From Euryarchaeota archaeon UBA558 (lineage in GTDB: Archaea; Thermoplasmatota; Poseidoniia; Poseidoniales; Thalassarchaeaceae): a DNA stretch of 64,000 nt. The stretch covers positions 26,695 through 90,694 of the forward strand of contig DAZE01000021.1 in the NCBI GenBank assembly GCA_002507175.1. Reading direction: 5' to 3'. Every line of letters begins with the position of its first letter. The first letter of the stretch is position 1. The position numbers and the translations under genes are program-made. A model generated the notes under the pieces. The model was given only the letters and a program-made list of their open reading frames with translations. It did no database searches and was not told where the DNA came from. Shown here in pieces: positions 3,065 through 20,352 of this stretch.

Positions 3065-4123
3065 ATGAACGCAATGAGTATTGTCTCATGGGCTGCTGCT
3101 AACAAGGCTCTTTCACTGGTATTTATGCTACTAATGAGCGGAGGCTTCTATCTCCTAATTTACGAGCCAGACTACTCTGATTGTGAACAGGATAAGAGGT
3201 GTTTAACGATAGCGTATCAAGTACAGGAAGACTACCAGGTATGGGACACCAATCCCCAGCAATTGGCGGATAAATTGAGCTCGATCATGGGCGATGATTG
3301 GGATGTTGAGATATACCCAGTTTCCGATTCTGGGCCACTAATCGAGGCAATCGACAAAGGCAATGCGGACATAGGATTTGTTGACGGTGCTGCCGCTTGG
3401 CTTGCTTGGGAGGTGTACGACTTGGACGTACTAGCCGCAGAAACAAAATCTGACGGAAGAACCTACTACAATGCAGCTGCCTGGGTCAGGGCTGATTCTG
3501 ACATGGCAGCCGCTTACTTGGATGACGATCCAAATACTGATCCATTCGCCTTGATGGAAGGTAAGAAATCATGCCACACCGGTTGGCTGAAATCGGCGGG
3601 CATGCTCATACCAATGGGGTACCTAATCGGAAATGGTTACGCCGAAGTGATAGGAGATCCGACGGAGATCGACTCGCTGGAAGCCACGGTCCACGGTTTC
3701 TTTTCGGAAGACTCCAGCATACCTAGGGGTAGTTCGCCATACTCATCCTACAAAGGAGCGATGAGATGCATGATGGAAGGGGCAGGCGATATCGCATTGA
3801 TAAAAGACACAGTTTACGATTCGTATTGCACAGGCAGCGACGCCTACGACTGGTGTCTGGATAGAGACGAAGTAGTCATGCTCGAGCCTTTCGGCCAAGC
3901 CCCAAGCCACCCAGCTCTGTATAACCCTGAGAACATGGATTTGGAGACCGTATCTCTGGTGCAAGATGCGTTGGGAGCCCTCAATGAGGATCAAGAGGGT
4001 GCTGACATTCTCTGGGATCTTTTGTATACTAAAGACATGATCCCGACTAATGCAGAGGACCACCTTGGGACTTATGGGGCGGCAGTATCGAACGTTCCGG
4101 GTATTCAAGCATACTTTGGGTGA
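3065..4123 (+). CDS. transferrin-family (single-lobe) protein, membrane/signal-anchored
   Basis: Several motifs match serotransferrin N-lobe motifs recalled from memory. [20 protein letters not shown] matches IRAIAANEADAVTLDAGLV, and TYYNAAAWV matches [30 protein letters not shown] matches [42 protein letters not shown] matches [20 protein letters not shown], and APSHPAL matches VPSHTVV. The ATG at 3065 precedes a hydrophobic anchor ([19 protein letters not shown]). The track start at 3023 is GTG. Confidence 0.7.
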   Translation: [352 protein letters not shown]

Positions 4124-4142
4124 GTCATTGATCCATAAGGCC

Positions 4143-5306
4143 ATGTCATTACTCATCTGCTCAATTCTTCTGAGTTCGATGGGGTGCCTGTCAAACGACG
4201 ACGATGGCTTCGATTGGCCGGATCCAACCAACTTTGAGTGTAGTATGGCGTTTGAGGAACTGAAATGCACAGATTACATTCAAGGGACAGAGACTCCCCA
4301 TCACTCAGTCATTAATCCGCTCAATGGGGAGGTTTGGATAGTTTATCTCAATGGATTCGTCAAGTCATGGGACGGTGAGGATCTGAACTGGGTTGCTGAC
4401 CTTAGTGAGATTGTGAATCGTTGTCACATGGAACAAGGTCTCTTAGGATTAGATTTAGAATCAGACTTTGAAAACACCAAGACCGTCTTGGTCTCATTCA
4501 TCGAAGAGGGTAGATGCGAAGGTGCCAACCAGTCTGACCTAATTCTAGCAAGTATGCAGCTTAACGAATATGGACTTCTAGATTTGGATTCACTCACTGT
4601 TCTGAAGAGAATTTCCCAACCCTATAGAAATCACAATGGGGGGCATCTCCTCAACACAGGCGACAATAAATTCCTGTGGGGAATAGGTGATGGCGGTAGT
4701 GCACACGACCCTCTGCTGAATGGCCAGAATTCATCCAATCCCCTTGGCAGCATTTACTACTTCTCATATGCGAACAACACGATCGCCCCTGTGATGGAGG
4801 ACCAAGGTGGCGACCCCTTTGTTCTTCACTATGGGGTAAGAAATCCTTGGCGATTTGACCTAGATCCTAATGGTGGTTTGTGGATAGCCGATGTTGGCCA
4901 AGCTTGTTGGGAAGAGGTTAATTTGGTAAATCTGACAGAAAGGGCAAATCTAGGTTGGTCCGACAGGGAAGGTTTCCATGAATTTGATCAAAGTGGCATC
5001 TGTGAAAATACTGACTCAGACGATATAGGAGAATATGTGGATCCAGTACTGGCCTACGCTCATGAAAACGGCAATTGCTCGATAACTGGGGGGTATTGGA
5101 TGGATTGGGGGCCAGACTCTCTGAGAGGAGGTTACCTGTATGGCGACTTCTGCTCTGGTTCCATGTGGGTAATTCGCGAGGAATCCGGCACTTGGATCGA
5201 GCATTATGTCGGTGCAAGTGGGGGAATGATTGTCGGATTCGGCCAATCTGGTGATGGTAATTTAGTGGTTTTTCACTGGATGGGCGATTCAGTGGTAATC
5301 TCATAG
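4143..5306 (+). CDS. PQQ-dependent sugar (glucose/sorbosone) dehydrogenase-like beta-propeller, putative lipoprotein
   Basis: Motifs YRNHNGGHL, GIGDGGSAHDP, GVRNPWRFDLDPNGGLWIADVGQACWEEVN, NLGWSDREG and SITGGYWM are typical of the soluble GDH family (COG2133). The ATG at 4143 gives MSLLICSILLSSMGC with a lipobox-like SMGC. The longer track start at 4050 overlaps the upstream gene. Confidence 0.8.
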   Translation: MSLLICSILLSSMGCLSNDDDGFDWPDPTNFECSMAFEELKCTDYIQGTETPHHSVINPLNGEVWIVYLNGFVKSWDGEDLNWVADLSEIVNRCHMEQGLLGLDLESDFENTKTVLVSFIEEGRCEGANQSDLILASMQLNEYGLLDLDSLTVLKRISQPYRNHNGGHLLNTGDNKFLWGIGDGGSAHDPLLNGQNSSNPLGSIYYFSYANNTIAPVMEDQGGDPFVLHYGVRNPWRFDLDPNGGLWIADVGQACWEEVNLVNLTERANLGWSDREGFHEFDQSGICENTDSDDIGEYVDPVLAYAHENGNCSITGGYWMDWGPDSLRGGYLYGDFCSGSMWVIREESGTWIEHYVGASGGMIVGFGQSGDGNLVVFHWMGDSVVIS

Positions 5307-5308
5307 TG

Positions 5309-5881
5309 TCATGGAAGGTAAGTCCTGAAATCCTCAACATCAAGCTTCTCTTTCTCTGGTAATGTCTCGGGATATCCTGCCTTCAAGAAACCAACAATTT
5401 GCTCTCTGTCCTTTGGAATGCCCAGTGCCTCATATGTCGAATCTGCCCTGGTAATCGCCCCTGTGGACCATTGAGTGCCTATTCCATTTCCCCAAAGAGA
5501 AAGGCAAAAGTTCTGAATCGAGCAAGCAGTGGCAGCATAATCCTCCATCTCTCTGAAACTATCGGACGGAGTCAGTGCTGAGGATACTGCTATCAACACC
5601 GGGGGGGACATAATTTTCGATACGGCCCGTTTCAATCCAGACTCTATATCATTGACTGATTGGCCCAACATTTTCGACCTGGATAGCCTTTCAACCTCAG
5701 GCAAAAGCAAGGTTCTCGCGCTTACACCAAGAACATAATACCTCCAGGGGTTGGTTTTTTTGTGGTTTGGCGCGTGCATAGCGGCCTTGAATGCAACGTC
5801 CAAGATTGAATTTTCAACCTCATCTTCTTTGAAGCGGTATACAGTACGTCGAGATAGGAGTGCTTCCTGAATCCCAGTCAT
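5309..5881 (-). CDS. nitroreductase-family flavoprotein
   Basis: 190 aa with N-terminal RRTVYRFKEDEV and APNHKKTNPWRYYV motifs characteristic of the NfnB/nitroreductase fold. Confidence 0.75.
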   Translation of the reverse strand: MTGIQEALLSRRTVYRFKEDEVENSILDVAFKAAMHAPNHKKTNPWRYYVLGVSARTLLLPEVERLSRSKMLGQSVNDIESGLKRAVSKIMSPPVLIAVSSALTPSDSFREMEDYAATACSIQNFCLSLWGNGIGTQWSTGAITRADSTYEALGIPKDREQIVGFLKAGYPETLPEKEKLDVEDFRTYLP

Positions 5882-7985: not shown

Positions 7986-8570
7986 TTACCCATTTTGAAA
8001 CCTTTTCCATAGCACCTCAACGGGATAGATCATTTCGATAGCGCAAATCAAAAGTACCATGCCGATCACGATGAATATCAATTCCAACACCGGTGCTATT
8101 GCTATCTCTGTTTGGATTGTGACCAGCTGATCATCAAGATCTGCCCCTTCTTTCCCCGCGGAAACGAATCTGTATGAGCCCGGCTCCAAATCCAATGTGA
8201 AATCACCGTTCGATTCAGGCCCCCCAGAAATGTATTGAAAATCGTTCTTGTTGCAGGGTGTAAGGCCATCTCCATCCGGTGGACAGCTTTCGGCGTAAAC
8301 AGAATCTACAACCCCTATCCAACTCTTCGATGGCTCACTCCAGTCGACGGCCATTTTGACGTCAAGCAACGCAAAACCTCCCGGGACATCAAGGTCTGAC
8401 CCAGTCATTCCGACCAGACACCCCTCATCTGAAACATCGTTGCAGGGTACGACTGGGATCTGAACTCGTTCCGAATCCAAACTGATGCCGATGGTGCTGA
8501 TCCCCCCAATGAGAAGGCAAACCACGCCAACTGCCCCGGGCAAGATGGAGAGTATGCGCATGACTCGCAT
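7986..8570 (-). CDS. hypothetical bitopic surface protein (N- and C-terminal TM segments)
   Basis: 194 aa with the N-terminal hydrophobic LSILPGAVGVVCLLIGGIS, an acidic Cys-containing ectodomain and the C-terminal TM PVLELIFIVIGMVLLICAI. Confidence 0.6.
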   Translation of the reverse strand: MRVMRILSILPGAVGVVCLLIGGISTIGISLDSERVQIPVVPCNDVSDEGCLVGMTGSDLDVPGGFALLDVKMAVDWSEPSKSWIGVVDSVYAESCPPDGDGLTPCNKNDFQYISGGPESNGDFTLDLEPGSYRFVSAGKEGADLDDQLVTIQTEIAIAPVLELIFIVIGMVLLICAIEMIYPVEVLWKRFQNG

Positions 8571-8607
8571 GGGCCTGTGTGAGGGACAACTAAAATGACG
8601 CTTCCGC

Positions 8608-8838
8608 CTAAACTGCGGATAAAAACGCCAGAACCAATGCTATAGCTGGGAAGAGGTAGAGCATAACAGTAAATCGTTTTCTGGATGCTTCCCGCTTCGA
8701 CTGGGTGATGGCACACTTCTCTTCCCTGCAAATGGCAGGATCCCTGTCAAGGGGGATTGGAGTCCAACAGACTGTGCAGTGACGATGTGGCGTCATAGAA
8801 GTTCGACTGCCTTTGTTTTGAGCCATTCTAATCACCAT
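8608..8838 (-). CDS. small zinc-ribbon membrane protein (DUF2116-like)
   Basis: 76 aa with HCTVC...C.EEKC cysteines followed by a basic stretch and the C-terminal TM MLYLFPAIALVLAFLSAV. Internal ATGs are possible starts. Confidence 0.5.
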   Translation of the reverse strand: MVIRMAQNKGSRTSMTPHRHCTVCWTPIPLDRDPAICREEKCAITQSKREASRKRFTVMLYLFPAIALVLAFLSAV

Positions 8839-9600
8839 TCACGAGTTCCTGACATGAGTGCCCCTGAATTTCAAGCCCTGCATCGCAGATTCTAGGGCTT
8901 CCAGATCCGAGCCATCTAGAATGTGTAGTTCGATACATGCCTCTCTAGCATGCATGGCCCCCACTGGGTCTACTACCGATCTAGCCCCTGCTTTATGCGC
9001 AGCGGGATCTCCAACTATTGCCCTGAGTTCATCATGACTCATGCTTTCAATCGGTGTTGCATCCGAATCGGCATTTGGGTCGGATGAGTAAACATGTGAC
9101 ACGTTTGTCGCGATGATGCAGTCACTGGCAGACATTTCTCGAGCGACTTTAATCGCCACGCAATCGGTAGTGTGGCCGGGATGGGTACCCCCCATGACTA
9201 CAATCCCGGAATCTATCAATCCAACAGCCTCAGAGACAGATGTTGGCAAACCGCTAGCTACGTTTATGCCATGGGCGATAAGACACTCTCGTACGATTGT
9301 TGCATTCAGACGAGTGGCAGAAATCCCTACCCTGTCGAGCGCTTCCACTGAATCCGTGGAACCAACAAGCATATCGATTCCATTTCTTGCGGCATCGCCG
9401 CCTCCGACCACTACTACGGTCCTGTGGTTCTGAGAGGACCTTGTTTCCAGAATCCTAGCAATCCCCTCTATCCATTTGTTGAATCCCATCGAATTGCCAC
9501 TTAGCAGGCTTCCACCAAGTGCCAAAACACGTCCGTCCACGCTGAGCGCAAACGGTTTACATCTATCAACGCACTCGTCTCCTTGCCCCACAGGCTTCAT
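8839..9600 (-). CDS. pyrH: uridylate kinase, archaeal type
   Basis: Amino-acid-kinase fold motifs LALGGSLL, VVVVGGGDAARNGI, GGTHPGHTTDCVAIKVA and ATNVSHVYSSDP. Confidence 0.8.
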   Translation of the reverse strand: MKPVGQGDECVDRCKPFALSVDGRVLALGGSLLSGNSMGFNKWIEGIARILETRSSQNHRTVVVVGGGDAARNGIDMLVGSTDSVEALDRVGISATRLNATIVRECLIAHGINVASGLPTSVSEAVGLIDSGIVVMGGTHPGHTTDCVAIKVAREMSASDCIIATNVSHVYSSDPNADSDATPIESMSHDELRAIVGDPAAHKAGARSVVDPVGAMHAREACIELHILDGSDLEALESAMQGLKFRGTHVRNS

Positions 9601-9636: not shown

Positions 9637-10884
9637 ATGTCAGATGATCCCGAACAGCAATACCGTCGACTTAGGCTCAAAAAAGCCTTGGAAGATCTAA
9701 GGGGGATGAAAGGGATGGGGACGGAACTGGTTTCCGTGATCATTCCTCCAGACAAGAAGATACATGACGTCAGGCAACAACTTTCACAAGAAGCCGGTCA
9801 GGCGGCGAATATCAAATCCAAATCAACCAAAAAACATGTTCAAGATGCGATTGAATCAGCCATAGCCACTCTAAACAGACACAGTACGCCCGGTGAACGC
9901 GGAATTGCCTTGTTCGTTGGACACGTGATTGTCGGAAACAATAAGACTAGGCTGGTTTCAATTGTCGTCGATGACCCGCCCGATGTAATTCAGTCATTCA
10001 GGTACAGATGCGATTCGAGTTTTGAGATCTCTCAACTAGAGGAGATGCTGATTGATCGTACCTCTTACGGCCTATTCGTCATAGACAGAGGCGAGGCCGC
10101 CTACGGCATAGCAACAGGAAAAAGAATACACTGCCAGGAAGAACTGCAAAGCAATATCATGGGAAAACACAGGCAAGGAGGTCAGTCAGCACAGAGATTT
10201 GAACGACTAATTGAAGAGGCGGCCCACAATTTCTTCAAGAGGGCCACTGAGCATGCATGTTCCTATTGGCTTCCAAATATCGAAAACATAAGAGGAATAA
10301 TTATCGGGGGGCCTGGCGGCACAAAGGACTTCGTCATGAAGAATGATTACTTGCATCACGAGATAAAGAAACTTGTTAGAGAGCCCTATTTCGACGTAGG
10401 CTATTCGAATGAGAGCGGGTTAAGAGAATTGGTACAGAGGGCTGGTGCCCTGATGGACAAAATCGACTTGGATGCTGAACGGGAACTTGTGGACAGATTT
10501 CTGAGAGAGGTAATGCAAACGAATCCCAAAGCTACATTCGGCGAGGTTCTGATCAGGGCTGCACTAGAACAAGGCGCAGTGGAGACACTTCTTCTCTCCG
10601 AAGGACTCAGGATAAGGCGAGTAGGATGGACTTGCAAGGCATGCAAACACGAATGGCAAACCTCTCAACAGTCGAGGACGGATATACCAACCTGTCCCGA
10701 CTGCGGTGCTGATTCACCAAATGAGGACGAAGGAAGGACGATGGATATCGTAGATGAGTTGAGCCTCCTTGCCACACGAACCTCTGCAAACGTCTCACTT
10801 GTTTCGTTAGATTCGGAAGAGGGTGCGACCCTCGCCAATAGCTTTGGTGGGATTGCAGCCATCCTAAGGTACCCATGGAATTGA
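9637..10884 (+). CDS. prf1: peptide chain release factor aRF1
   Basis: NIKS (ANIKSKS), YxCxxxF (YRCDSSF) and GGQ (GGQSAQRF) motifs are all present. The ATG at 9637 is preferred because the track start at 9583 is TTG and overlaps pyrH. Confidence 0.9.
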   Translation: MSDDPEQQYRRLRLKKALEDLRGMKGMGTELVSVIIPPDKKIHDVRQQLSQEAGQAANIKSKSTKKHVQDAIESAIATLNRHSTPGERGIALFVGHVIVGNNKTRLVSIVVDDPPDVIQSFRYRCDSSFEISQLEEMLIDRTSYGLFVIDRGEAAYGIATGKRIHCQEELQSNIMGKHRQGGQSAQRFERLIEEAAHNFFKRATEHACSYWLPNIENIRGIIIGGPGGTKDFVMKNDYLHHEIKKLVREPYFDVGYSNESGLRELVQRAGALMDKIDLDAERELVDRFLREVMQTNPKATFGEVLIRAALEQGAVETLLLSEGLRIRRVGWTCKACKHEWQTSQQSRTDIPTCPDCGADSPNEDEGRTMDIVDELSLLATRTSANVSLVSLDSEEGATLANSFGGIAAILRYPWN

Positions 10885-10888
10885 TCAC

Positions 10889-12625
10889 ATGCGAGAGTTG
10901 TTTGACCCTGTCGCCAAAGGTCTCGCAGGCGTGTTGATCGATCTTGGGCTTGATGCCGTGGAACCAAAGTCAATTGTCGGGGGTGCCACTGACAAATCGC
11001 ATGGCGACATAGCAATCCCATTTCACAAGTTTGCGGGGGTTTTGAGGAGGCCACCAGCAGAAATCGCAGAGGAGGCAGCCGGAAAACTATCCCCATATCT
11101 GGATCAAATCGCACATGTAAGCTCCAAATCGGGCTTCGTCAACGTCACAGCAACTCCGAAATGGCTCTCTTCCAGATTAGTGGAGTTCTGTGCTCATACC
11201 TCATTCGGTGTTGATAGGGATTCACTGAGAAAGGTTGTCGTGGACTATTCATCTCCAAACATAGCTAAGGAAATGCACGTGGGCCATCTCAGGTCAACCG
11301 TGATTGGCGACTCCCTAGTCCGTATTCTTGAGGCAAAGGGGAATAAGGTCATCCGCGAAAACCACATAGGTGATTGGGGAACTCCATTTGGAATGCTAAT
11401 AGAAAGGCTGGAGGACCTAGACTCATCGGGGATAGACCCCGACGAGGCACTGTCGGATTTAGGGCAGTTCTACAGGGATGCCCGCGCGCAGTTCGATGGC
11501 GATGAAAAGTTTCGAGCTAGAGCTAGAGCCAGGGTCGTATCCCTCCAAACAGGGGATGGGCCCACTTTGAGGAGGTGGAGGCAACTGGTAGACATATCGA
11601 TGAGTCATTTCCAGGAAGTTTACGTATTGCTTGACGTTCTTCTAACCGAGGATGATGTGATGGGCGAATCAAAGTATGATCACCTATTACCGGACGTAGT
11701 AGAGAGACTCCAGAAAAAGGGATTGCTCGAGTCAAATGAAGGTGCCTCTGTCATATATCCAGGAGATTGGGTAAATAGGGATGGGGACCCCCTCCCATTG
11801 ATTATCAAAAAGAGGGATGGGGGATACAACTACGCTACATCTGATCTTGCATGCATCATAGATAGGGTAGAAAGACTTCAAGCCGAGGATATGGTTTACG
11901 TTGTCGGCGCTGAGCAGAAGCAGCACTTCGAGATGGTTTTTGCCAGTGCGAGAAAGTGTGGCTTGATCGATAGCCGCCACACCACAAGCCACGTACCCTT
12001 TGGGCTTGTGCTAGGCCCTGGTGGCGGGAAACTGAAAAGCCGCAGTGGGGGGGCAGTAAAACTTCTGGATTTACTGAACGAGGCGATCGATAGGGCCTCG
12101 GCCTCTGTCAAAGGCAGGAACCCCGATATAACGCAAGAAGAGTTGGGAAGGCTGTCCAGAAGCATCGGTATAGGAGCAGTAAAGTACTCAGATCTTAAAT
12201 CAGACAGGACCAAAGACTACGTTTTCGACTGGGAAAAAATGCTTAGCTTCGAGGGAGAGACAGGTCCCTATCTGCAGTATGCACATGCTAGGATCTCAAG
12301 TATACTGAGAAACGAGAAATTTCGACAATCAAAATCAGGCCCCACCTCTTTTTCACTCGAGCATGAGTTAGAGATGAGGTTGGCTCGTGAAATTCTGAAA
12401 TACCCCGATTCCGTAGATCAAGCCGCAGAGGATCTAGCGCCACATCGCATCTGCAAACAACTGCATAGATTATCTCAGGCCTTTGCTGCTTTTTATGAGA
12501 ACTGTCCAGTGTTGGTGGAAGATGACAACACCAGGAACGAGAGACTTGCCCTTTGTAGAATCACTGGCGGGATTCTGAACCATGGTTTGAACCTACTTGG
12601 GATTGATTCACCAGATAGAATGTAG
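10889..12625 (+). CDS. argS: arginine--tRNA ligase
   Basis: 578 aa with the class I HIGH region SSPNIAKEMHVGHLRSTVIGD and a DALR-type anticodon-binding C-terminus ending in M. It starts 4 nt after the prf1 stop. Confidence 0.9.
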   Translation: MRELFDPVAKGLAGVLIDLGLDAVEPKSIVGGATDKSHGDIAIPFHKFAGVLRRPPAEIAEEAAGKLSPYLDQIAHVSSKSGFVNVTATPKWLSSRLVEFCAHTSFGVDRDSLRKVVVDYSSPNIAKEMHVGHLRSTVIGDSLVRILEAKGNKVIRENHIGDWGTPFGMLIERLEDLDSSGIDPDEALSDLGQFYRDARAQFDGDEKFRARARARVVSLQTGDGPTLRRWRQLVDISMSHFQEVYVLLDVLLTEDDVMGESKYDHLLPDVVERLQKKGLLESNEGASVIYPGDWVNRDGDPLPLIIKKRDGGYNYATSDLACIIDRVERLQAEDMVYVVGAEQKQHFEMVFASARKCGLIDSRHTTSHVPFGLVLGPGGGKLKSRSGGAVKLLDLLNEAIDRASASVKGRNPDITQEELGRLSRSIGIGAVKYSDLKSDRTKDYVFDWEKMLSFEGETGPYLQYAHARISSILRNEKFRQSKSGPTSFSLEHELEMRLAREILKYPDSVDQAAEDLAPHRICKQLHRLSQAFAAFYENCPVLVEDDNTRNERLALCRITGGILNHGLNLLGIDSPDRM

Positions 12626-12665
12626 GTACCGGAGGGTTCCTGAACTCTGGCCTCCACGGGTGGGC

Positions 12666-13130
12666 ATGCTCAGCATCGGTGAAACCGCCCCTACTTTCCA
12701 ACTGACCGCACAAGACAAGTCGAAGTTCGACAGCCGTGAGCACGAGGGCTCCAGATTGGTGGTGGTCTTCTATCCAGCCGCATTTACGGGTGTCTGCACA
12801 GAGGAAATGTGCACGTTCACTGACCTCATGGCGGATCTAGAAAATTCAGGTTCCAATGTGGTGGGAATTTCGGTAGACGCACCATTTTCCAACGCTGCCT
12901 TCGCAAAGCAGAATAACATCCCCTTCCCACTACTTTCCGACGTACATAGGTCAGTGATTAATTCGTTCGGAGTCCCCTACAATGATTTTGTGATCGAAGG
13001 TTACACCGTTGCGACACGTTCGGTATTCGTGATTGATCCAGATGGCAGGATAAGCTACGCCTGGGCTGCGGAGAACCCCGGGGTTCAACCGGACTATGAG
13101 TCCGTTATCGCCCACTGTCTAAACAACTAG
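12666..13130 (+). CDS. peroxiredoxin (AhpC/TSA, Bcp-like)
   Basis: APTFQL...VVVFYPAAFTGVCT contains the peroxidatic Cys. The ATG at 12666 is preferred because the track start overlaps argS. Confidence 0.8.
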   Translation: MLSIGETAPTFQLTAQDKSKFDSREHEGSRLVVVFYPAAFTGVCTEEMCTFTDLMADLENSGSNVVGISVDAPFSNAAFAKQNNIPFPLLSDVHRSVINSFGVPYNDFVIEGYTVATRSVFVIDPDGRISYAWAAENPGVQPDYESVIAHCLNN

Positions 13131-13135
13131 GGAAT

Positions 13136-15817
13136 TCACTCATCGTTGGTTGATCCACGGGATCTCATTCCTATGATGACCAGTCCGATGGCCACCACAT
13201 AGAGGCCGAAAGCAACGAAGTCAGCCATGTCATCGGTGGAGCCCTCGGCCCCGGTCCCAAAGTCAGTCCAGAAGAACATGCCCTGATTATCGATGACTGC
13301 AGAGACGAAACTCTCTGCGTCGTCGTCCCCGATCTCACTTGACGTGTGGATCTCAAACACTGGGTGTGTGTCTCCGGCGAACAATGGATCCATGAATCCT
13401 GGGCCTCTAGTGTCCAGATGGAAGGTTGATTTGCTCTTTCCGTACATCGCTATTCCTGTGATCTCCTCTACGTAGATGTCTACGTGGGATTCGAAGTATA
13501 CAGGCAATGCCCCTGGCATGACGTCTACGACTGAGCCAGAGCCAATCAGCTTGGCCTGTATCTGGTTCGAAGCCGGATCGAGCATCACTTGGTGGTGAAC
13601 CATCGGTATGCCCTTGAATTCCAATTCTCCGACGACCTCTGTGTTCGCAAGTGCGTAGCCGACCAAGTTGACTACTTGAGGGGATTGAGGATCAGCAGCG
13701 ATGCCGCCTATCGCCCCAGTCTGATCAGTGAAATCGTTCCCCACGTGTGATGATAGAAGCCCATAGGTCAGGTCCTCTGATGCTTGCGATCTCCATGGCA
13801 TGTCGGGCCCCATCGCATAAACATCTCCTGTTTCAGCGTCGAGGTAGCCCTCAGCGACTCGGAGCCCAGGAGTTCCTCCATTTACAGAGGTCGTCTCCTC
13901 ATAGACGCTGTAGTCTCCTGTTGAGAGGCCATCGCTACCGTAGTATGTCGCGTTGGTCTCAAGGCTGACCCAACTGTTCTCAGCCCCATAGAGGCCCGCT
14001 AGAACAGGATCAGACCAACCATATAGCCAGTTGTCCATCGATTGAGTGGTAAGCGGGCCAGATCCGTATTGGAAGTTCAGCAGCAGTCCGACGACTTGGT
14101 CGAACATCAAATCCTTGACCCACGACCTTAACAAGGAAGCATCCAGCTCAGATACGCCGTACATATTTGCGACGTGTGCATCGTCCCAAACGGTCTGCAC
14201 ACCGCCTGTGGCGGGTCCCTCGGCCGTCATTGGGAAGGTCATTCCCGACAATTCTCCGTACATGAACATCGTAGCCACGCTGGAGTCTGTAAGCGCATAT
14301 GGCCCGTCATAGAGGATCTCGTCTACTTTTTCAATAGGCAGATTCGTACCCTCTCCCGCAGCCATGTCCCTATTGAGGCCAACTGCTATGTTTCCTCCGG
14401 CCAAAGGCTCTTCGCCCCCGAAGGCCATCTTCCACCAGGTGTCGGCGTTGATTGTCCCAGCACCATTCGGGTTGAGGATCCTCAAGGGGAACTCGGAGTT
14501 CCCTAGTTGCCAGTCCCCGGGCCAATAGGCTACATCGCTCAGAGTAAGAATCCCAGGGAAATTGTATTCTTCGATCATGTCCATGTAGGCAGGGGGGCTT
14601 GCGGACAAGGGCAGCAGCATTAGAACAACTCCGTAAAGTGGAATGCCACTGAGATCTTGCTCAGCGAGGATGCCAGCAGGGTATCCCGTATCTTCGTTGA
14701 TTCCGTAGAGGAAATACTCTAAATCGTCCTCTGGGAAGTCATACCCGGTTAGGACTTCAACTCGGTGGCCGTTATCTTCTGCGACATCGGGGTGTATCCC
14801 TGCCCCATATTGCGACATTTTCAGTGCGGCTCCGGCATAGACTGCCCAATCCATCAAATTCAGTTCCACAGGGTCCGTGGAACCATATCCTAGCAAATCT
14901 GCCCTCAAGGGGGTTATTTCCGGGCTTGGAGCTCCCCATGCGGCGACCATCCATGGCCCATAGTCGCAGGTCAGTGCCATGCAGACCCCGCTGGTGGGAT
15001 CCACTGCATCATGCAGTATCGACTGAGCGGAAGCTGTGAAATCAGGCGACATCATATCGGCGCCGAGTGCACCTCTTGTGACGTCGTCTAATGTTGAATT
15101 CCATGCTGAGAAAAAGCCATCCATGACCATCGCGTCGGACATCGAGGCAACGGTAATTGCATCCAAGGTTCCGCCTGTCTGGGCCTGCACCATTGCGTTG
15201 GTGGACTGGACGATTCCGTCTATGTCCTGAGCTGTTTCCATGCTTGGTGCCAAGTACATCATGTCGTATGTCACCATGTTCTTTGAAAAACCAGCCTTGG
15301 CAAACTGCTCTCCATATTCGATTCCAGTGGATATTCCCGCCATTAACTGGGTATTCCATAGGATGTTTTGGTTGGTGATCAGTGTGTCTCCTGGCATTGA
15401 TTGGTGTGGTACTCCATCGGAATCTTCCCACACGCAATCAGAGCAGTGTTCGAACACGTCATAGGACGAGTAGGTCATGGTTCCATTATCTGAGTCCCAG
15501 CCGATGAGGTCATTGTGGACAGTGACATTGTAGATGAAAGGCCCCATGTGATCATATATCGGGTCTTCTCCATCCAAGGCTTCTGTGGGATTTGTAATTG
15601 AATAGGCAAAATATGTCCTCTGCGAGACAGACTCTTGCCAGTCCTCGTCCCCTGAGTAATCCTCCTCGTCGTCATAGGACGATTGTACCGTGTCCCTCAC
15701 GGTATCCAATGTCGCATCTGACACGTATGGTGCGAATGCGAATGCGTTCAATCCAATGAGGATAATTCCGACAATTAGGTAGGTCGTAGAGCGGTTGCTA
15801 GACATGCTATCGTGCAA
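13136..15817 (-). CDS. CD36/LIMP-2 (scavenger receptor class B) family-like protein with a large insertion; N- and C-terminal TM anchors
   Basis: 893 aa with the CD36-type hairpin topology: N-terminal TM YLIVGIILIGLNAFAF and C-terminal TM FVAFGLYVVAIGLVIIG. Residues 69-123, YFAYSITNPTEALDGEDPIYDHMGPFIYNV...DSDNGTMTYSSYDVFE, match LIMP-2 [29 protein letters not shown]...GDNGTTIS...AYVFE. Residues 594-606, MDNWLYGWSDPVL, match ELLWGY(K/R)D(E/P)xL. KGIP at aa 735 and PVYFESH...YVEEITGI match GIPVYRF, PVYISLPHF and DIEPITG. Confidence 0.65.
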   Translation of the reverse strand: MHDSMSSNRSTTYLIVGIILIGLNAFAFAPYVSDATLDTVRDTVQSSYDDEEDYSGDEDWQESVSQRTYFAYSITNPTEALDGEDPIYDHMGPFIYNVTVHNDLIGWDSDNGTMTYSSYDVFEHCSDCVWEDSDGVPHQSMPGDTLITNQNILWNTQLMAGISTGIEYGEQFAKAGFSKNMVTYDMMYLAPSMETAQDIDGIVQSTNAMVQAQTGGTLDAITVASMSDAMVMDGFFSAWNSTLDDVTRGALGADMMSPDFTASAQSILHDAVDPTSGVCMALTCDYGPWMVAAWGAPSPEITPLRADLLGYGSTDPVELNLMDWAVYAGAALKMSQYGAGIHPDVAEDNGHRVEVLTGYDFPEDDLEYFLYGINEDTGYPAGILAEQDLSGIPLYGVVLMLLPLSASPPAYMDMIEEYNFPGILTLSDVAYWPGDWQLGNSEFPLRILNPNGAGTINADTWWKMAFGGEEPLAGGNIAVGLNRDMAAGEGTNLPIEKVDEILYDGPYALTDSSVATMFMYGELSGMTFPMTAEGPATGGVQTVWDDAHVANMYGVSELDASLLRSWVKDLMFDQVVGLLLNFQYGSGPLTTQSMDNWLYGWSDPVLAGLYGAENSWVSLETNATYYGSDGLSTGDYSVYEETTSVNGGTPGLRVAEGYLDAETGDVYAMGPDMPWRSQASEDLTYGLLSSHVGNDFTDQTGAIGGIAADPQSPQVVNLVGYALANTEVVGELEFKGIPMVHHQVMLDPASNQIQAKLIGSGSVVDVMPGALPVYFESHVDIYVEEITGIAMYGKSKSTFHLDTRGPGFMDPLFAGDTHPVFEIHTSSEIGDDDAESFVSAVIDNQGMFFWTDFGTGAEGSTDDMADFVAFGLYVVAIGLVIIGMRSRGSTNDE

Positions 15818-15879: not shown

Positions 15880-17478
15880 TCAAATAAATCCGAATCCATC
15901 CAAAGTTTGAGCAAAGGTGTAGAGCATTATTGGGACGAGGATTATTCCCATGGCGTGACTTCTGCGAATACCTATCCTGGGCGGCATGAGCCCGATTGCA
16001 GTACCAATGATGAGCGTCCCTACTCCGACCCAGCCAGTTGAGAAGTATACCAAAATGGTCACAAAGATAGTCACTGCCAACACCAATGATCTGAGGGGAA
16101 TCAATTCATGGAGCCTCAACATACCTCTGCCCACTGCACTCATCATGGGAACAGCCAATAAGCCGGCAGCGATTGTGATACCGAGCAGACGTACGAAATC
16201 CGCAGGGGGTTCGACTGCCCCCCATATGTCTATTGGGTACATCATGTTAAGAGCCAAGGCGGCACCTGATCTGGGTCTCCCAACCATGTAAAGGAAGCCC
16301 AGTACCATTACTGTCACAGCTGTGTTGACCGATGATAGGATGGCGATAATTTCCAGATCCCTTTTCGGGTCATTGTACCTAGGGTCTAGGTCAGGTGTCG
16401 ACTCAACATCCCCCAAGGCGGCTTTAAACAGGTCCAGATCCTCATCGCTCAAGCCCTCATCATCCACTTTCATAACAGGATTGTTGGACTTAGAAATCGG
16501 ATTATCTAGGATACCATGCTCGAAATCCGCCGGAACATAATTTGGGTCAGTCAAGCGACCCCAAAAATTCCTCATCGACATCACAACGACGGTAGCTTGG
16601 GCAGCAGTCATCCCTGGGAGAATTGCCATCACACTGGATACCACCGCAGACAGAAATGTGGGTATCGCCAATGGACGCATTGGAGGAAGTTCCCAGTCGG
16701 GTTCTTGTGGCGGTATTTCGGACGATGTTACGTAAATGTCGATCAAATTCGCAATTCCAAAAAGGCCAGCAAGGCCAGGAAAGAGCAATGTCGCGGAAGG
16801 CATGCCAACTGGCGATCGTGCTGGTAGTTCAAAAACGGCCCATCCATAAAAGCCCGTCAGAAGGAAATATGCGGTCGCTACCAGAATACCAGCACTTCTC
16901 GAAGAATCAGTGAGTCGAAAATCCAGTGACCTTGCCTTGATGTTGAATTTTCTTCCTGCAATTGGTATCGTGAGGCCTACAGGTCTTCGGAATTCATACC
17001 TAAGCCCTCTCGTTAACTTTTGAAGTGGGTCTGGCCAGGGCAGCCTTGTTGTCTCTGTAAGGATCAGGAAGACTGAGATGAAAAGCAAAAGCCAAGGGAG
17101 TATGTCTCTACTCGTCTCATACAGGCCCAAACCTGGATTCTCCCCGAACATCAGCCTTGCCACTATCAACAGGGGTATAGACATCAAAAGCCCCATCTGG
17201 GAGCCCCTTGCTGAATACGCCACACCTTGAGCTGCCTGTCCGGAGATAAGCATCCTGTGGCCGGGCAATAGTGCGAGTGCCATATTGTCGTCAGGAGCTC
17301 CGACCAGGGCACTCGGAATGTAATTGAGGAATGTGTGCACGGTCCCACAAGCAACGATTATGCCTGCAACTGCGTCTAGTGGTATTCCAATTCCAACAGC
17401 CACTGGTGACAGAGATAGGGCGATCAGGGCCACATTGTTGACGTGAAAACCCGGTATTAATCCAGTCAGACTGCCCAA
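15880..17478 (-). CDS. TctA/DUF112-family polytopic membrane permease with acidic cytoplasmic insert
   Basis: 532 aa and highly hydrophobic. GLIPGFH and GAPDDNMALALLPGHRMLISGQAAQGVAYSARGS resemble TctA signature regions. A central acidic loop reads DDEGLSDEDLDLFKAALGD. Confidence 0.55.
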   Translation of the reverse strand: MGSLTGLIPGFHVNNVALIALSLSPVAVGIGIPLDAVAGIIVACGTVHTFLNYIPSALVGAPDDNMALALLPGHRMLISGQAAQGVAYSARGSQMGLLMSIPLLIVARLMFGENPGLGLYETSRDILPWLLLFISVFLILTETTRLPWPDPLQKLTRGLRYEFRRPVGLTIPIAGRKFNIKARSLDFRLTDSSRSAGILVATAYFLLTGFYGWAVFELPARSPVGMPSATLLFPGLAGLFGIANLIDIYVTSSEIPPQEPDWELPPMRPLAIPTFLSAVVSSVMAILPGMTAAQATVVVMSMRNFWGRLTDPNYVPADFEHGILDNPISKSNNPVMKVDDEGLSDEDLDLFKAALGDVESTPDLDPRYNDPKRDLEIIAILSSVNTAVTVMVLGFLYMVGRPRSGAALALNMMYPIDIWGAVEPPADFVRLLGITIAAGLLAVPMMSAVGRGMLRLHELIPLRSLVLAVTIFVTILVYFSTGWVGVGTLIIGTAIGLMPPRIGIRRSHAMGIILVPIMLYTFAQTLDGFGFI

Positions 17479-17547
17479 TGCTACTCCAATTATGAATGAT
17501 CCAATGAGCCAAGCAAAATCAGAGAGAAGGGGATCCAGACAACCACC

Positions 17548-19116
17548 TCACAATACATTCAGGCAGAAACGCATCTCGTTTTCAACAAAATTCTCACTCG
17601 TTTCCAGTCTACCTATCCACTGGATGGGCTCACCGGCCGTTGCCTGTTGGCTCGTTTCTGTCCCATCACCAAGTAAGCACAGTCTTTCACTTGTTCCCGA
17701 CCTCTCTATCCACTGGAGCCCCTCATCGTCCATCACCACTACGCCCATTATCGAGACCCTGTTGCCGATCTCCCACTTCCAAGTCTCATAACCGTCCCCC
17801 CAACCGAGCTGACTTGGATAAGGGAGGTCCCCCAAGGTCCAAGATCGGGCTTCAAGTATAACTCTGCCACTGCTCTCGGACCACAGCACCGTTGCGTTGA
17901 AACGGATGCTCTGACCGACTTCGATGTATCCCTCGAATCCTCCAATCAACTCTATCCTCAGCTGAGTAGTACGATCAAAATATGTCTCGGCATCTCCAAC
18001 GTAGCCCTTGGGATAATCGTTGGATATCGTGCCTGTGACCCAACCATCGAAGGTAAAAGCGCTGCCTACGTATCTGAAGGGGTCGGAAGCCACTTCAGCA
18101 AGGGGGATTGCGTCGACAGAATTTCTTATTGGGTTCCGGACCTCTGCATCATATCCCCGATCCAAGCAAATTGCGGACTCATCTGTGGACCAAATTAGCC
18201 TGCCAGTCCAAACCGTGCTCATGCCCACTGTTACATTTTCTAGGTCTGAGGAAGAGGGCAGCATGCACAGACGATCGCCGACATTAGGCCCAACCAGAGT
18301 CCACCCACTTTCTTCCGTCTCGACAGATGCCTCAATCTGTACTAGTTTGCCAACTTCATAGCTAAGCGACTGCGGATCTATATCCCAGTCCAGAAGCACC
18401 GTGGTTCCTGCGTTTAGAACGTCCACTGCTAAGGCTTGTACTAGGAGCCTATACCTTAGAGATCTTTGGTCGTATTGTATCCATCCTGTGACCTCCACAT
18501 GGCTTCCTGATTCTACCCAGTCCGAGGGGCGACCTTCTATCTGCATGTACAACAAATGATCCGCGTTTCCATATGCGGGGTTGTCCATAAGAGAAAGGGA
18601 GTGATAAGCAACGTCGGGATTCATTGATTCACTCAGATACCCATCAACTCTTATCGATTCATTCACCCATTTCGAGGGATTCATCGCTACCTCCACTAAC
18701 TGAAGGCTCTCATATTCGATATTCATGCACCCAGTGCCGCCGCCATTCTGTTTACATTGGATTGCACCATATCCATTCGAAGCTAACCAGATTCTGCCAT
18801 TCCACTCGCTCACCTCACCTTCGACGGTCACCAGCGTACCGACTGGAGGAACGGGGTGATCCTTGTCTACCAACCAACGTACCTCCACCATTGAGTGACC
18901 TTCTATCTCCCTAACTTGCAAGTCGATCCTGTCAGCTTGTTCACCGTATGGATCGATCACATAACTGGTCAACACGCCTTCTACTTTCACGGTCTCGCGT
19001 GGGTATTCGTGGATGTCATCGATATCTATCAAGTCGGGTTCTCTAATTACCGCATAGAAATTCATTGCGGACACCAATAAAAGAGAAGTGAAAAACATCA
19101 CCCACATCTTCGCCAT
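17548..19116 (-). CDS. signal-anchored surface protein with tandem OB-fold-like modules
   Basis: 522 aa with N-terminal TM MWVMFFTSLLLVSAMNFYAV. The pattern '(V/I)x(V/I)xGx(V/L)...G(R/x)(I/V)(W/L)L' recurs about 8-9 times, for example VKVEGVL, VTVEGEVSEWNGRIWL, IRVDGYL, VEVTGWI, VQIEASV, FDGWVTG, VSIMGVVV and IQWIGRL. Confidence 0.6.
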   Translation of the reverse strand: MAKMWVMFFTSLLLVSAMNFYAVIREPDLIDIDDIHEYPRETVKVEGVLTSYVIDPYGEQADRIDLQVREIEGHSMVEVRWLVDKDHPVPPVGTLVTVEGEVSEWNGRIWLASNGYGAIQCKQNGGGTGCMNIEYESLQLVEVAMNPSKWVNESIRVDGYLSESMNPDVAYHSLSLMDNPAYGNADHLLYMQIEGRPSDWVESGSHVEVTGWIQYDQRSLRYRLLVQALAVDVLNAGTTVLLDWDIDPQSLSYEVGKLVQIEASVETEESGWTLVGPNVGDRLCMLPSSSDLENVTVGMSTVWTGRLIWSTDESAICLDRGYDAEVRNPIRNSVDAIPLAEVASDPFRYVGSAFTFDGWVTGTISNDYPKGYVGDAETYFDRTTQLRIELIGGFEGYIEVGQSIRFNATVLWSESSGRVILEARSWTLGDLPYPSQLGWGDGYETWKWEIGNRVSIMGVVVMDDEGLQWIERSGTSERLCLLGDGTETSQQATAGEPIQWIGRLETSENFVENEMRFCLNVL

Positions 19117-19398: not shown

Positions 19399-20352
19399 AT
19401 GTCACGGCGCAAGTCAGCACGAGGAGCGGTCATGATACTCGTTGTGTACCTTCTCAGCACATGGGCAGGCGCCGCTGCGGTGCAGGCTCAGGGCGCCGGG
19501 GCCGTGCCTGACATTACCCTAACCTGCTCCCAACCCTCCCCAATCGATGTGGAACCCGGGTCACCACGATCCACCTTAGTGAACTGCAACCTCGAGAACC
19601 CCTCAGTGCATCAGGTCAAGGTCGAGATAAGGATACAGGCCGGCAACCTCGCATACTCAGGTCCTGCCAGCGTGACCGTCGGCAATGGCCTTTCAGCCTC
19701 ATTCCAAGTCACGCTAAGAGCAGACTTGAGGGCCCCCGAGGGATCCCAGACAGTCGCGATTACAGCAGAGGTGACTCAGGCAAATGGCGTCCCTGTCACA
19801 AGCTCACCATCAACCTATACCGTCCTTGCCATCATCCGTCAGTTCAGCAGACTGAGAGTCGAGAGCGATGTTGCTTTCATCCAGCTCAGGCCCAAAGTCG
19901 ACACGAATCTAGTGTTCGCCGTTCACAATGACGGAAACGCGATGGACAGGTTTGCGATAGGGATAGATAACCGGGAGGAACTCAACGACGAGGGTTTCCA
20001 ACTCAGCATCCCCCTAGTTTCGGTAGAGATCGAGTCAATGGCCCCCCCTCAGAAGATATATGTTCAGATGAGGACTCCTAAGAATCAAGGTTGGACCGAT
20101 AAATATTACAACCTGAATTTCAAAGCCACCAGCGACTATTCCATCAAGACCGTTGGAATTGCGGATTTCCAGATCCAGACTATGACCATCTACATCAGAG
20201 GCATTTACCTCCCAGGGTTCGAGCTGGTTGGGACGATGATGATATCAGCATTGGCCGCAGCAGCACTCGCTGGTCGTGGGGCAAGGGAAGGTGAAGACGA
20301 TGCCATCGATGAAAATGGCAATGTTATCCCATTGGAGCCCCTGACACTCTGA
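19399..20352 (+). CDS. secreted surface protein with CARDB/NEW3-like beta-sandwich look and a PGF-type C-terminal anchor-like segment
   Basis: Signal peptide MILVVYLLSTWAGAAAVQAQ. VFAVHNDGNAMDRFAIGI resembles CARDB-type strands. The C-terminus is LPGFELVGTMMISALAAAALAGRGAR followed by an acidic tail. Confidence 0.7.
   Translation: MSRRKSARGAVMILVVYLLSTWAGAAAVQAQGAGAVPDITLTCSQPSPIDVEPGSPRSTLVNCNLENPSVHQVKVEIRIQAGNLAYSGPASVTVGNGLSASFQVTLRADLRAPEGSQTVAITAEVTQANGVPVTSSPSTYTVLAIIRQFSRLRVESDVAFIQLRPKVDTNLVFAVHNDGNAMDRFAIGIDNREELNDEGFQLSIPLVSVEIESMAPPQKIYVQMRTPKNQGWTDKYYNLNFKATSDYSIKTVGIADFQIQTMTIYIRGIYLPGFELVGTMMISALAAAALAGRGAREGEDDAIDENGNVIPLEPLTL

Follow-up and report, generated by a model that had tools for sequence, protein, structure and literature searches.

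Does a marine archaeon encode a genuine member of the CD36 receptor family, and what would such a protein do on its surface? The question is raised by one open reading frame (ORF) in a 64,000-nucleotide stretch of contig DAZE01000021.1 (assembly GCA_002507175.1, positions 26,695 to 90,694 of the forward strand) from Euryarchaeota archaeon UBA558, which belongs to the Thalassarchaeaceae of the order Poseidoniales (Marine Group II, MGII). The whole stretch is called the window below, and its features are listed in Table 1. An earlier reading, made from the letters alone and called here the sequence-only reading, had proposed that the ORF encodes a homologue of CD36 and LIMP-2 with a large insertion. 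The ORF is confirmed, and the evidence supports its product as a genuine, if strongly diverged, member of the CD36/scavenger-receptor class B superfamily. The checks that the sequence-only reading had named as able to refute it, on the PF01130 match, the predicted fold and the integrity of the contig, all came out in its favour. A CD36-family protein thus occurs in a domain of life where none was expected, and it carries a large apex domain without precedent.

The window protein matches the Pfam family PF01130 (CD36) at 37.3 bits (E = 1.5e-9), above the curated gathering cut-off of 26.5 bits. PF01130 was the sole Pfam family reported for it, even at E ≤ 10, and PF11271 (PorA/DUF3068) did not match. 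All of the 49 diverse relatives examined, down to 26% identity, match PF01130 and nothing else at E ≤ 1e-3 (best E 1e-19), PF11271 being reported for none of them at this threshold. More divergent full-length relatives outscore the window protein, with 45–70 bits in two stretches. In the window protein, residues 1–130 alone gave 33 bits over a matched region at aa 60–122, and neither aa 125–560 nor aa 560–893 gave a Pfam match when scanned separately. Since the Pfam signal rests on about 60 N-terminal residues, the C-terminal part was tested on its own by profile–profile comparison with hhalign, using 18 diverse MGII-type sequences against nine bona fide CD36 proteins. The full-length comparison reached 99.8% probability (E = 8.6e-30, aa 10–846), the N-terminal block (aa 1–130) 99.3% (E = 1.7e-20) and the C-terminal block alone 97.4% (E = 1.1e-11, 234 columns), with aa 574–847 aligned to residues 169–465 of a 528-aa LIMP-2-like protein. 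Against only three proteins of canonical length, the N-terminal block still gave 97.9% (E = 5e-13). With tblastn, the C- and N-terminal blocks matched the archaeal protein P0221, which has no insertion, at E = 2e-9 and E = 2e-4, respectively.

The conserved motifs of the family lie in register with those of LIMP-2 and CD36 in both halves of the ectodomain. The stretch YSITNPTEALDGEDPIYDHMGPFIY (core NPTEALDGEDPIYDHMGPFIY) aligned with its LIMP-2 counterpart together with DNGT, NWLYGWSDPVL with ELLWGYKDEIL, and YVEEITGI with DVEPLTGI; KGIP and PVYF were also in register, and a further acidic helix motif towards the C-terminus paired PVFEIHTSSEIGDDDAESF with PVLFLEESAEITDEKAEEF. The motif pairings given in the sequence-only reading were thus all reproduced by the alignment programs. 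The N-terminal core block holds the NPxExLxGExPxxxxxGPxxY and DNGT motifs and the predicted beta strands 62–74, 88–108, 113–124, 129–131, 137–139 and 146–150. The order in the C-terminal block is a helix at 557–584, NWLYGWSDPVL, beta-barrel strands, KGIP, PVYF, YVEEITGI and PVFEI...DDDAESF. Taken together, the alignments indicate collinear homology from end to end of the ectodomain, with the C-terminal half of the barrel covered as well.

A HMMER search of 1.84 billion representative proteins with a profile of 33 family members returned only 194 proteins at E ≤ 1e-3. Asgard CD36 proteins were among those retrieved. Apart from the family's own members, the matches comprised a coral LIMP-2-like protein (457 Pfam bits across the full CD36 model), one further CD36 protein of canonical length, two insertion-free proteins of about 525 aa and several proteins of 700–970 aa with strong two-part CD36 matches (216–301 bits).

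The similarity would be an artefact if the contig were chimeric or contaminated with eukaryotic DNA, or if an unrelated membrane protein had come to resemble the family motifs by chance or convergence. This was suggested by the first single-sequence comparisons and by a Pfam signal confined almost wholly to some 60 N-terminal residues. Single-sequence and family-profile searches of the PDB sequences gave only weak LIMP-2 matches (E = 0.04 with phmmer and 0.17, respectively). Both halves of the protein are independently significant in the profile–profile comparison, however, and the fold search described below is specific. The genes around the ORF encode aRF1 of archaeal type, arginyl-tRNA synthetase (ArgRS), a peroxiredoxin and TctA; the GC content is flat across the window, and both flanks are syntenic in independent MGII metagenome-assembled genomes (MAGs), including a contig of 1.5 Mb. 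The contig is archaeal, neither chimeric nor contaminated with eukaryotic DNA. An artefact was extremely improbable and is already refuted by these observations.

Similar to LIMP-2/SCARB2, CD36 and SR-BI (PF01130; PDB 4F7B, 4Q4B, 5LGD), the protein is a hairpin with one transmembrane helix at each extreme terminus, short tails and a large ectodomain in between, as the sequence-only reading had described. Only two strongly hydrophobic 19-residue windows were found in the whole protein on the Kyte–Doolittle scale, and both lie in helices of the AlphaFold2 (AF2) model (Table 1). The short tail ahead of the N-terminal anchor contains Arg, the tail that follows the C-terminal anchor (RSRGSTNDE) is basic, and the ectodomain is highly acidic, with 130 Asp and Glu against 24 Lys and Arg. 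The basic residues of both tails and the acidic ectodomain suggest that the ectodomain faces outwards and that the tails are cytoplasmic. Such extreme acidity and the archaeal host distinguish the MGII proteins from animal CD36 and LIMP-2. They also lack the conserved cysteines of the metazoan type, some having a single Cys; the window protein has a CxxC pair (Cys125/Cys128) in the N-terminal block, just upstream of the apex insertion, and Cys279 and Cys284 inside the latter. Since the metazoan-type cysteines are absent from protist and Asgard members too, they do not define the family. The only NCBIfam match, a sub-threshold one to HmcD on a transmembrane segment, was rejected as spurious.

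The first AF2 model, built from 33 close relatives, had a mean predicted local distance difference test score (pLDDT) of 54.6, with the CD36 blocks below 50; its Foldseek matches included CD36, LIMP-2 and LmcA, none at E ≤ 1e-3. It was superseded by a second model from a 49-sequence alignment, to which relatives of about 30% identity had been added, with a pLDDT of 83.1 and a predicted template-modelling score of 0.74; its beta-rich blocks are mostly at pLDDT ~80–90. A Foldseek search of the PDB with this model gave 13 matches at E ≤ 1e-3, every one of them CD36 or LIMP-2. The best match was CD36 (5lgd_A, E = 1.5e-6), and LIMP-2 was represented by 4q4b, 4f7b, 4q4f, 9fjf, 4tw0 and 5uph; complexes of LIMP-2 with glucocerebrosidase and of CD36 with PfEMP1 were among the matches. 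The alignments span 312–344 columns of CD36/LIMP-2 ectodomains of about 390 residues. The next four matches were chains of mycobacterial LmcA at E ~1e-2, and the others were not credible; a library of viral structures, used as a negative control, gave no match better than E = 0.27. The predicted fold is therefore matched specifically, if loosely, and the model is consistent with an ectodomain built as an asymmetric antiparallel beta-barrel, as expected for the family. The core blocks of this barrel have the highest conservation of any segment (0.74–0.79).

The sequence-only reading had also noted a large insertion between the two core blocks. The insertion is present, but its limits, given as aa 125–560 (about 440 residues), had to be moved to aa ~161–565 (about 405 residues), because the N-terminal core ends only at about aa 160 and the core resumes at about W566. 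In the full-length hhalign alignment, the end of the N-terminal core (aa 157–160) is marked by ITNQNILWNTQ, which aligns with the LIMP-2-like segment VTVNIPLLAV of helix 4, and W566 aligns with the Trp that opens helix 5 of LIMP-2 (WSQVHFLREIIEAMLKAYQQKLF...). We take the latter residue to be W146 of human LIMP-2, and helix 5 to be the glucocerebrosidase-binding helix at residues ~150–167. Its counterpart in the AF2 model is the helix at 557–584. In LIMP-2 and CD36, a three-helix bundle sits on top of the barrel (PMC8972800). The counterparts of helix 4 (ITNQNILWNTQ), helix 5 (aa 557–584) and the WGY(K/R)D helix can all be aligned, and the ~405 helical residues that CD36 and LIMP-2 lack are intercalated between the first two. 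By alignment and model, the insertion is thus placed within the apex bundle, between the counterparts of helices alpha4 and alpha5.

The apex insertion is the best-modelled part of the protein, with a pLDDT of 83–95 over aa 161–400 and mostly 86–93 beyond, and it had already reached 80–90 in the poor first model. Its conservation is on a par with that of the core blocks. Taken alone, it had no Pfam match and no match among PDB sequences at E ≤ 10, and hhalign found no profile relationship with the insertions of other long (Asgard-type) CD36 proteins (1.7% probability). An internal duplication of the apex module was considered and left unsupported: hhalign picks the pairing of GAGTINADTWWKMAFGGEEPLAGG with GSGPLTTQSMDNWLYGWSDPVLAG at E = 0.16, and the two halves of the insertion compared with each other gave E = 0.36. 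According to a eukaryote-wide study, the apex is the hyper-variable, ligand-sensing part of the CD36 family (10.1101/2023.11.13.566873). The MGII proteins take this variability to an extreme, and an insertion at the ligand-sensing apex amounts to an extreme natural experiment in the diversification of that site.

The genome scan covered one genome per GTDB species and confirmed 221 loci, so that the gene is present in 221 species-level Poseidoniales genomes; 79 loci were retained for study. As the retained loci come from 79 different assemblies, the gene appears to be single-copy among the genomes examined. The window contains no second CD36-like paralogue. Identity to the window protein is 42–98% in Thalassarchaeaceae, with some members at ~30–36%, and ~28–31% in Poseidoniaceae. 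Four MAGs labelled as bacterial carry the gene on short contigs: 'Pedosphaera sp.' (L010), 'Gemmatimonadetes' (L034), 'Yoonia sp.' (L056) and 'Salipiger bermudensis' (L081). The first of them (NYYT01000082.1) is a mis-binned archaeal contig, since it carries archaeal aRF1, together with ArgRS and peroxiredoxin, in MGII synteny; the other three probably are as well.

The view that the CD36 family is essentially eukaryotic, taken over in the sequence-only reading, proved overstated in the light of strong PF01130 matches in Asgard archaea, insertion-free archaeal versions, the actinobacterial LmcA/PgfA fold and an NCBI record label. The Asgard proteins form about 22 clusters (P0250, P0245 and P0324–P0342) from MAGs of Lokiarchaeota, Promethearchaeota and Hermodarchaeota; an example is Lokiarchaeota MBD3340896.1 (P0250). 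They are 711–982 aa long, and all named records are annotated as "hypothetical protein". Like the MGII proteins, they are archaeal and carry a large insertion near the same profile position (~125–155), but this insertion has no detectable similarity to that of MGII, and the Asgard clade is separate in a neighbour-joining tree. They are also much nearer to eukaryotic CD36: five Asgard-type proteins that were scanned (P0213, P0232, P0246, P0250 and P0254) scored 216–301 bits on PF01130, the Asgard–eukaryote core identity is 25.7%, and the next-nearest relatives are CD36 proteins of protists (Percolomonas, Dictyostelium). The Asgard PF01130 protein could be a eukaryotic signature protein that has not been listed as such.

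The neighbour-joining tree is rough, being based on 327 core columns with saturated distances and three to four eukaryotic sequences, and deep relationships are beyond its resolution; it was used solely to show that MGII is not placed within the eukaryotes sampled. In this tree, MGII forms a long-branch clade with 100% bootstrap outside the Asgard-plus-eukaryote cluster. Core identity of MGII is 18% to Asgard proteins, 18% to eukaryotes and 21.5% to the insertion-free archaeal pair, the highest value for any outgroup. The tree and the identities argue against a recent capture from a eukaryote, and a genuinely archaeal, vertically inherited gene is supported.

The insertion-free archaeal pair, P0221 (522 aa) and P0247 (534 aa), is similar to both core blocks of the window protein and comes from an archaeal context, but is of canonical length, has no apex insertion and matches PF11271 as well as PF01130. 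Such proteins are very rare, with two clusters in 5.8 billion proteins. On one 82.8-kb contig (L083), an insertion-free 522-aa protein that matches both families (8001–9569, plus strand) lies about 2.6 kb from a 554-aa paralogue that matches PorA only (3701–5365, minus strand). The context is clearly archaeal, with an HMG-CoA synthase/thiolase/DUF35 trio, archaeal Pilin_N, NreA and a DUF234 ATPase. PF11271 is said to be exclusive to Actinobacteria; in their sequences, these proteins form a bridge between CD36 and PorA.

In Actinobacteria, the superfamily is represented by LmcA/PgfA (PF11271; MSMEG_0317, Rv0227c; PDB 7N3V, 7SHW), a membrane-anchored protein with an elongated CD36-like beta-barrel that encloses cavities. 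It differs from the window protein in its Pfam family and in its Foldseek similarity of only E ~1e-2. LmcA has no apex helical bundle (PMC8972800), unlike the MGII protein with its hugely expanded one. In the literature searched, prokaryotic relatives of CD36 are documented for Actinobacteria only, and at the structural level only.

LIMP-2 and SR-BI contain a lipid tunnel, and the apex region of the animal proteins is a ligand-binding three-helix bundle. By analogy with these proteins, with CD36 and with LmcA/PgfA, lipid capture and transfer may be expected of the MGII protein too. Among the solved relatives, CD36 has been found with palmitate in its central cavity, LmcA encloses cavities and LmcA/PgfA is implicated in lipid trafficking (PMC8972800). 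We consider it reasonably likely that the MGII protein, seemingly single-copy across the group, binds hydrophobic cargo with its apex and hands it on to the membrane by way of the barrel. Organic matter of algal origin, dissolved or particulate, would supply this cargo in the form of free fatty acids, lipids or lipid-bearing particles. Once captured by the enlarged apex, the cargo would travel through the barrel interior as far as the outer face of the cytoplasmic membrane and so feed the fatty-acid degradation pathway encoded by MGII genomes. Since fatty-acid degradation is a shared predicted trait of MGII (PMC6336850), uptake would be the most economical direction of transport.

The genes near the MGII loci bear on this proposal in different ways. 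In a sister clade of intermediate identity (42–53%) within Thalassarchaeaceae, 20 of the 28 loci have a same-strand downstream gene for a protein of 1,000–1,500 aa with lamin-tail (LTD) and PLDc_2 (phospholipase D-like) domains, as at 10775–15340 (plus strand) in locus L001, where the protein also has PhoX; L002, L003 and 17 further loci have the gene in the corresponding place. This neighbour is a suggestive hint of a link to lipid phosphates.

The same fold could also serve in the outward direction or within the envelope, where it would shuttle material made by the cell itself (isoprenoid lipids, lipid-linked glycans or lipid-anchored surface proteins) between membrane and S-layer or surface coat. 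Among prokaryotic relatives, only LmcA/PgfA have been characterised, and these work in lipoglycan and trehalose-monomycolate trafficking; the MGII gene, apparently single-copy and near-universal, is distributed like a housekeeping envelope factor; its surroundings hold a choice-of-anchor T protein, large surface proteins and a giant AglB/STT3 about 10 kb away, and the N-x-T sequon N622/T624 is conserved. An envelope role is nevertheless unlikely in our view, as the window protein matches PF01130 and not PF11271, the Foldseek E-values of CD36 and LIMP-2 are better than those of LmcA by three to four orders of magnitude, MGII has no second membrane to be supplied, and the conserved operon-like unit contains no gene for glycan or lipid biosynthesis.

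LIMP-2 binds glucocerebrosidase, and CD36 binds thrombospondin and PfEMP1. The apex of the MGII protein might, in a similar way, bind a macromolecular partner (an algal surface, a particle, a protein or a virus) and channel no lipid at all. Such an adhesin or receptor would fit the animal apex, which is the protein-ligand site and varies more than any other part of the family (10.1101/2023.11.13.566873), the predicted attachment of MGII to particles (PMC6336850) and an apex that is enlarged about tenfold, yet conserved like the core. We regard it as quite unlikely, given that the top conservation lies in the barrel core, which points to a barrel that is itself functional rather than a mere stalk, and that Pfam and PDB sequence searches revealed no adhesion-type repeats or known binding domains in the insertion.

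Several points weigh against the reading of the MGII protein as a CD36-type carrier of lipids. On the side of homology, Pfam recognises nothing in the C-terminal block alone, the hhalign comparison of that block with three canonical sequences only is collinear but weak (E = 3e-4), and the template-modelling scores to CD36 and LIMP-2 are 0.38–0.42, with a root-mean-square deviation of 7–9 Å when the whole model is superposed. On the side of function, the core is about 18% identical to that of any member that has been characterised, too low a value for substrate specificity to be transferred, and the apex domain is without a detectable relative and hence gives no pointer to the ligand. No phospholipase D homologue is found in the window, the LTD/phospholipase D gene is missing from the window's own clade, and no lipid-metabolism gene is adjacent to the CD36-like gene in that clade. 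In the class of about 30% identity, the neighbours are unrelated (among them molybdenum hydroxylase subunits, PheRS and an XdhC-like protein) and provide no coherent link.

MGII archaea are among the most abundant heterotrophs of the surface ocean, and the protein offers a concrete, expressible candidate for lipid uptake. A broader scenario, rather doubtful as a whole, would see in CD36 not a eukaryotic invention but a lipid-handling fold that is old and prokaryotic, with independent lines in archaea (MGII, Asgard and others) and a further line in Actinobacteria, in which eukaryotic CD36 came from an Asgard-type ancestor and the MGII version, with its ~400-residue apex as the capture device, became the principal portal for lipid scavenging. 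If this were true, the most abundant archaea of the ocean surface would scavenge phytoplankton-derived fatty acids and lipids chiefly through this protein. The Poseidoniales clade and the strong Asgard homologues raise the question of whether a lipid-transfer receptor predates the eukaryotes.

The domain match itself has already been visible to automated pipelines; the novelty lies in the analysis and in what it implies. Most members carry a pre-computed PF01130 annotation; most records are still labelled "hypothetical protein", while the NCBI record of one MGII relative reads "CD36 family protein [Candidatus Thalassarchaeum sp.]" and one record of the Joint Genome Institute reads "CD36 family". 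In the literature searched, no paper linked CD36 with MGII, Euryarchaeota or Asgard archaea, and none of the MGII papers retrieved mentions CD36. The pan-eukaryote survey of CD36 domains covered eukaryotic proteomes only (10.1101/2023.11.13.566873).

Table 1. Features of the CD36-like gene, its product and neighbouring genes in the window.
Feature	Residues (aa)	Position in window	Strand	Basis or remark
CD36-like ORF	893 (as listed, TTG start)	13136..15817	minus	ORF list
N-terminal transmembrane anchor	~12-32	15722..15784	minus	Kyte-Doolittle maxima, windows 10-15; AF2 helix 3-46
N-terminal CD36 core block	~58-160	15338..15646	minus	Pfam, hhalign, AF2 strands
Sequon N-G-T (in DNGT)	111-113	15479-15487	minus	
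Apex domain, lineage-specific, mostly alpha-helical	~161-565 (~405)	14123..15337	minus	AF2, alignments
C-terminal CD36 core block	~566-850	13268..14122	minus	hhalign, tblastn, Foldseek
Sequon N-A-T	622-624	13946-13954	minus	
C-terminal transmembrane anchor	~864-884	13166..13228	minus	Kyte-Doolittle maxima, windows 863-868; AF2 helix 863-888
TctA-family membrane protein		15880-17478	minus	Pfam TctA, E=2e-39; upstream of the CD36-like ORF
Unannotated protein	522	17548-19116	minus	Upstream of the TctA gene
Choice-of-anchor T protein	317	19399-20352	plus	NF041740, 251 bits, full-length
AglB/STT3 fusion ORF	3,124	25484-34858	plus	STT3/AglB oligosaccharyltransferase domain, aa ~363-694

The start of the CD36-like gene is probably the ATG at 15805, which yields an 889-aa product beginning with MSSNRS... 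Close homologues are four residues shorter than the listed ORF (homologue P0001 has 889 aa), and the start was placed at this ATG because they begin at residue 5 and M5 of the listed ORF is nearly invariant in the family alignments.

Two sequons lie on the ectodomain (Table 1). That of DNGT is common to the window protein and LIMP-2. In the other, all three alignments show T624 without exception; N622 is equally constant in two of them and is kept by at least 90% of the 49 members in the set. Both are possible conserved sites of archaeal N-glycosylation.

The TctA gene and the gene for the 522-aa protein, which had no family match in the domain scans, form a pair (15880..19116) located 62 nt from the CD36-like ORF on the same strand. 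Of the 32 Thalassarchaeaceae loci with enough flanking sequence, 24 have the pair upstream in the same orientation; since it is cleanly absent in the other eight, it is not obligatory, and can be described as frequent but dispensable. Wherever it is absent, the choice-of-anchor T gene adjoins the CD36-like gene. The product of this gene is the most conserved neighbour, with 57–94% identity across Thalassarchaeaceae. Genes for surface proteins are frequent in the region around the locus. Besides the fused oligosaccharyltransferase domain, the 3,124-aa ORF contains many CarboxypepD_reg and other Ig-like/transthyretin-like repeats, and it is unusually large for an archaeal N-glycosylation enzyme. 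On the other side of the CD36-like gene, the peroxiredoxin ORF as listed (TTG at 12597) overlaps the end of the ArgRS gene by 29 nt (12597–12625). Because the AhpC/TSA domain begins only at residue 27, the true start of the peroxiredoxin is probably an internal Met (MLSIGETAPTF).

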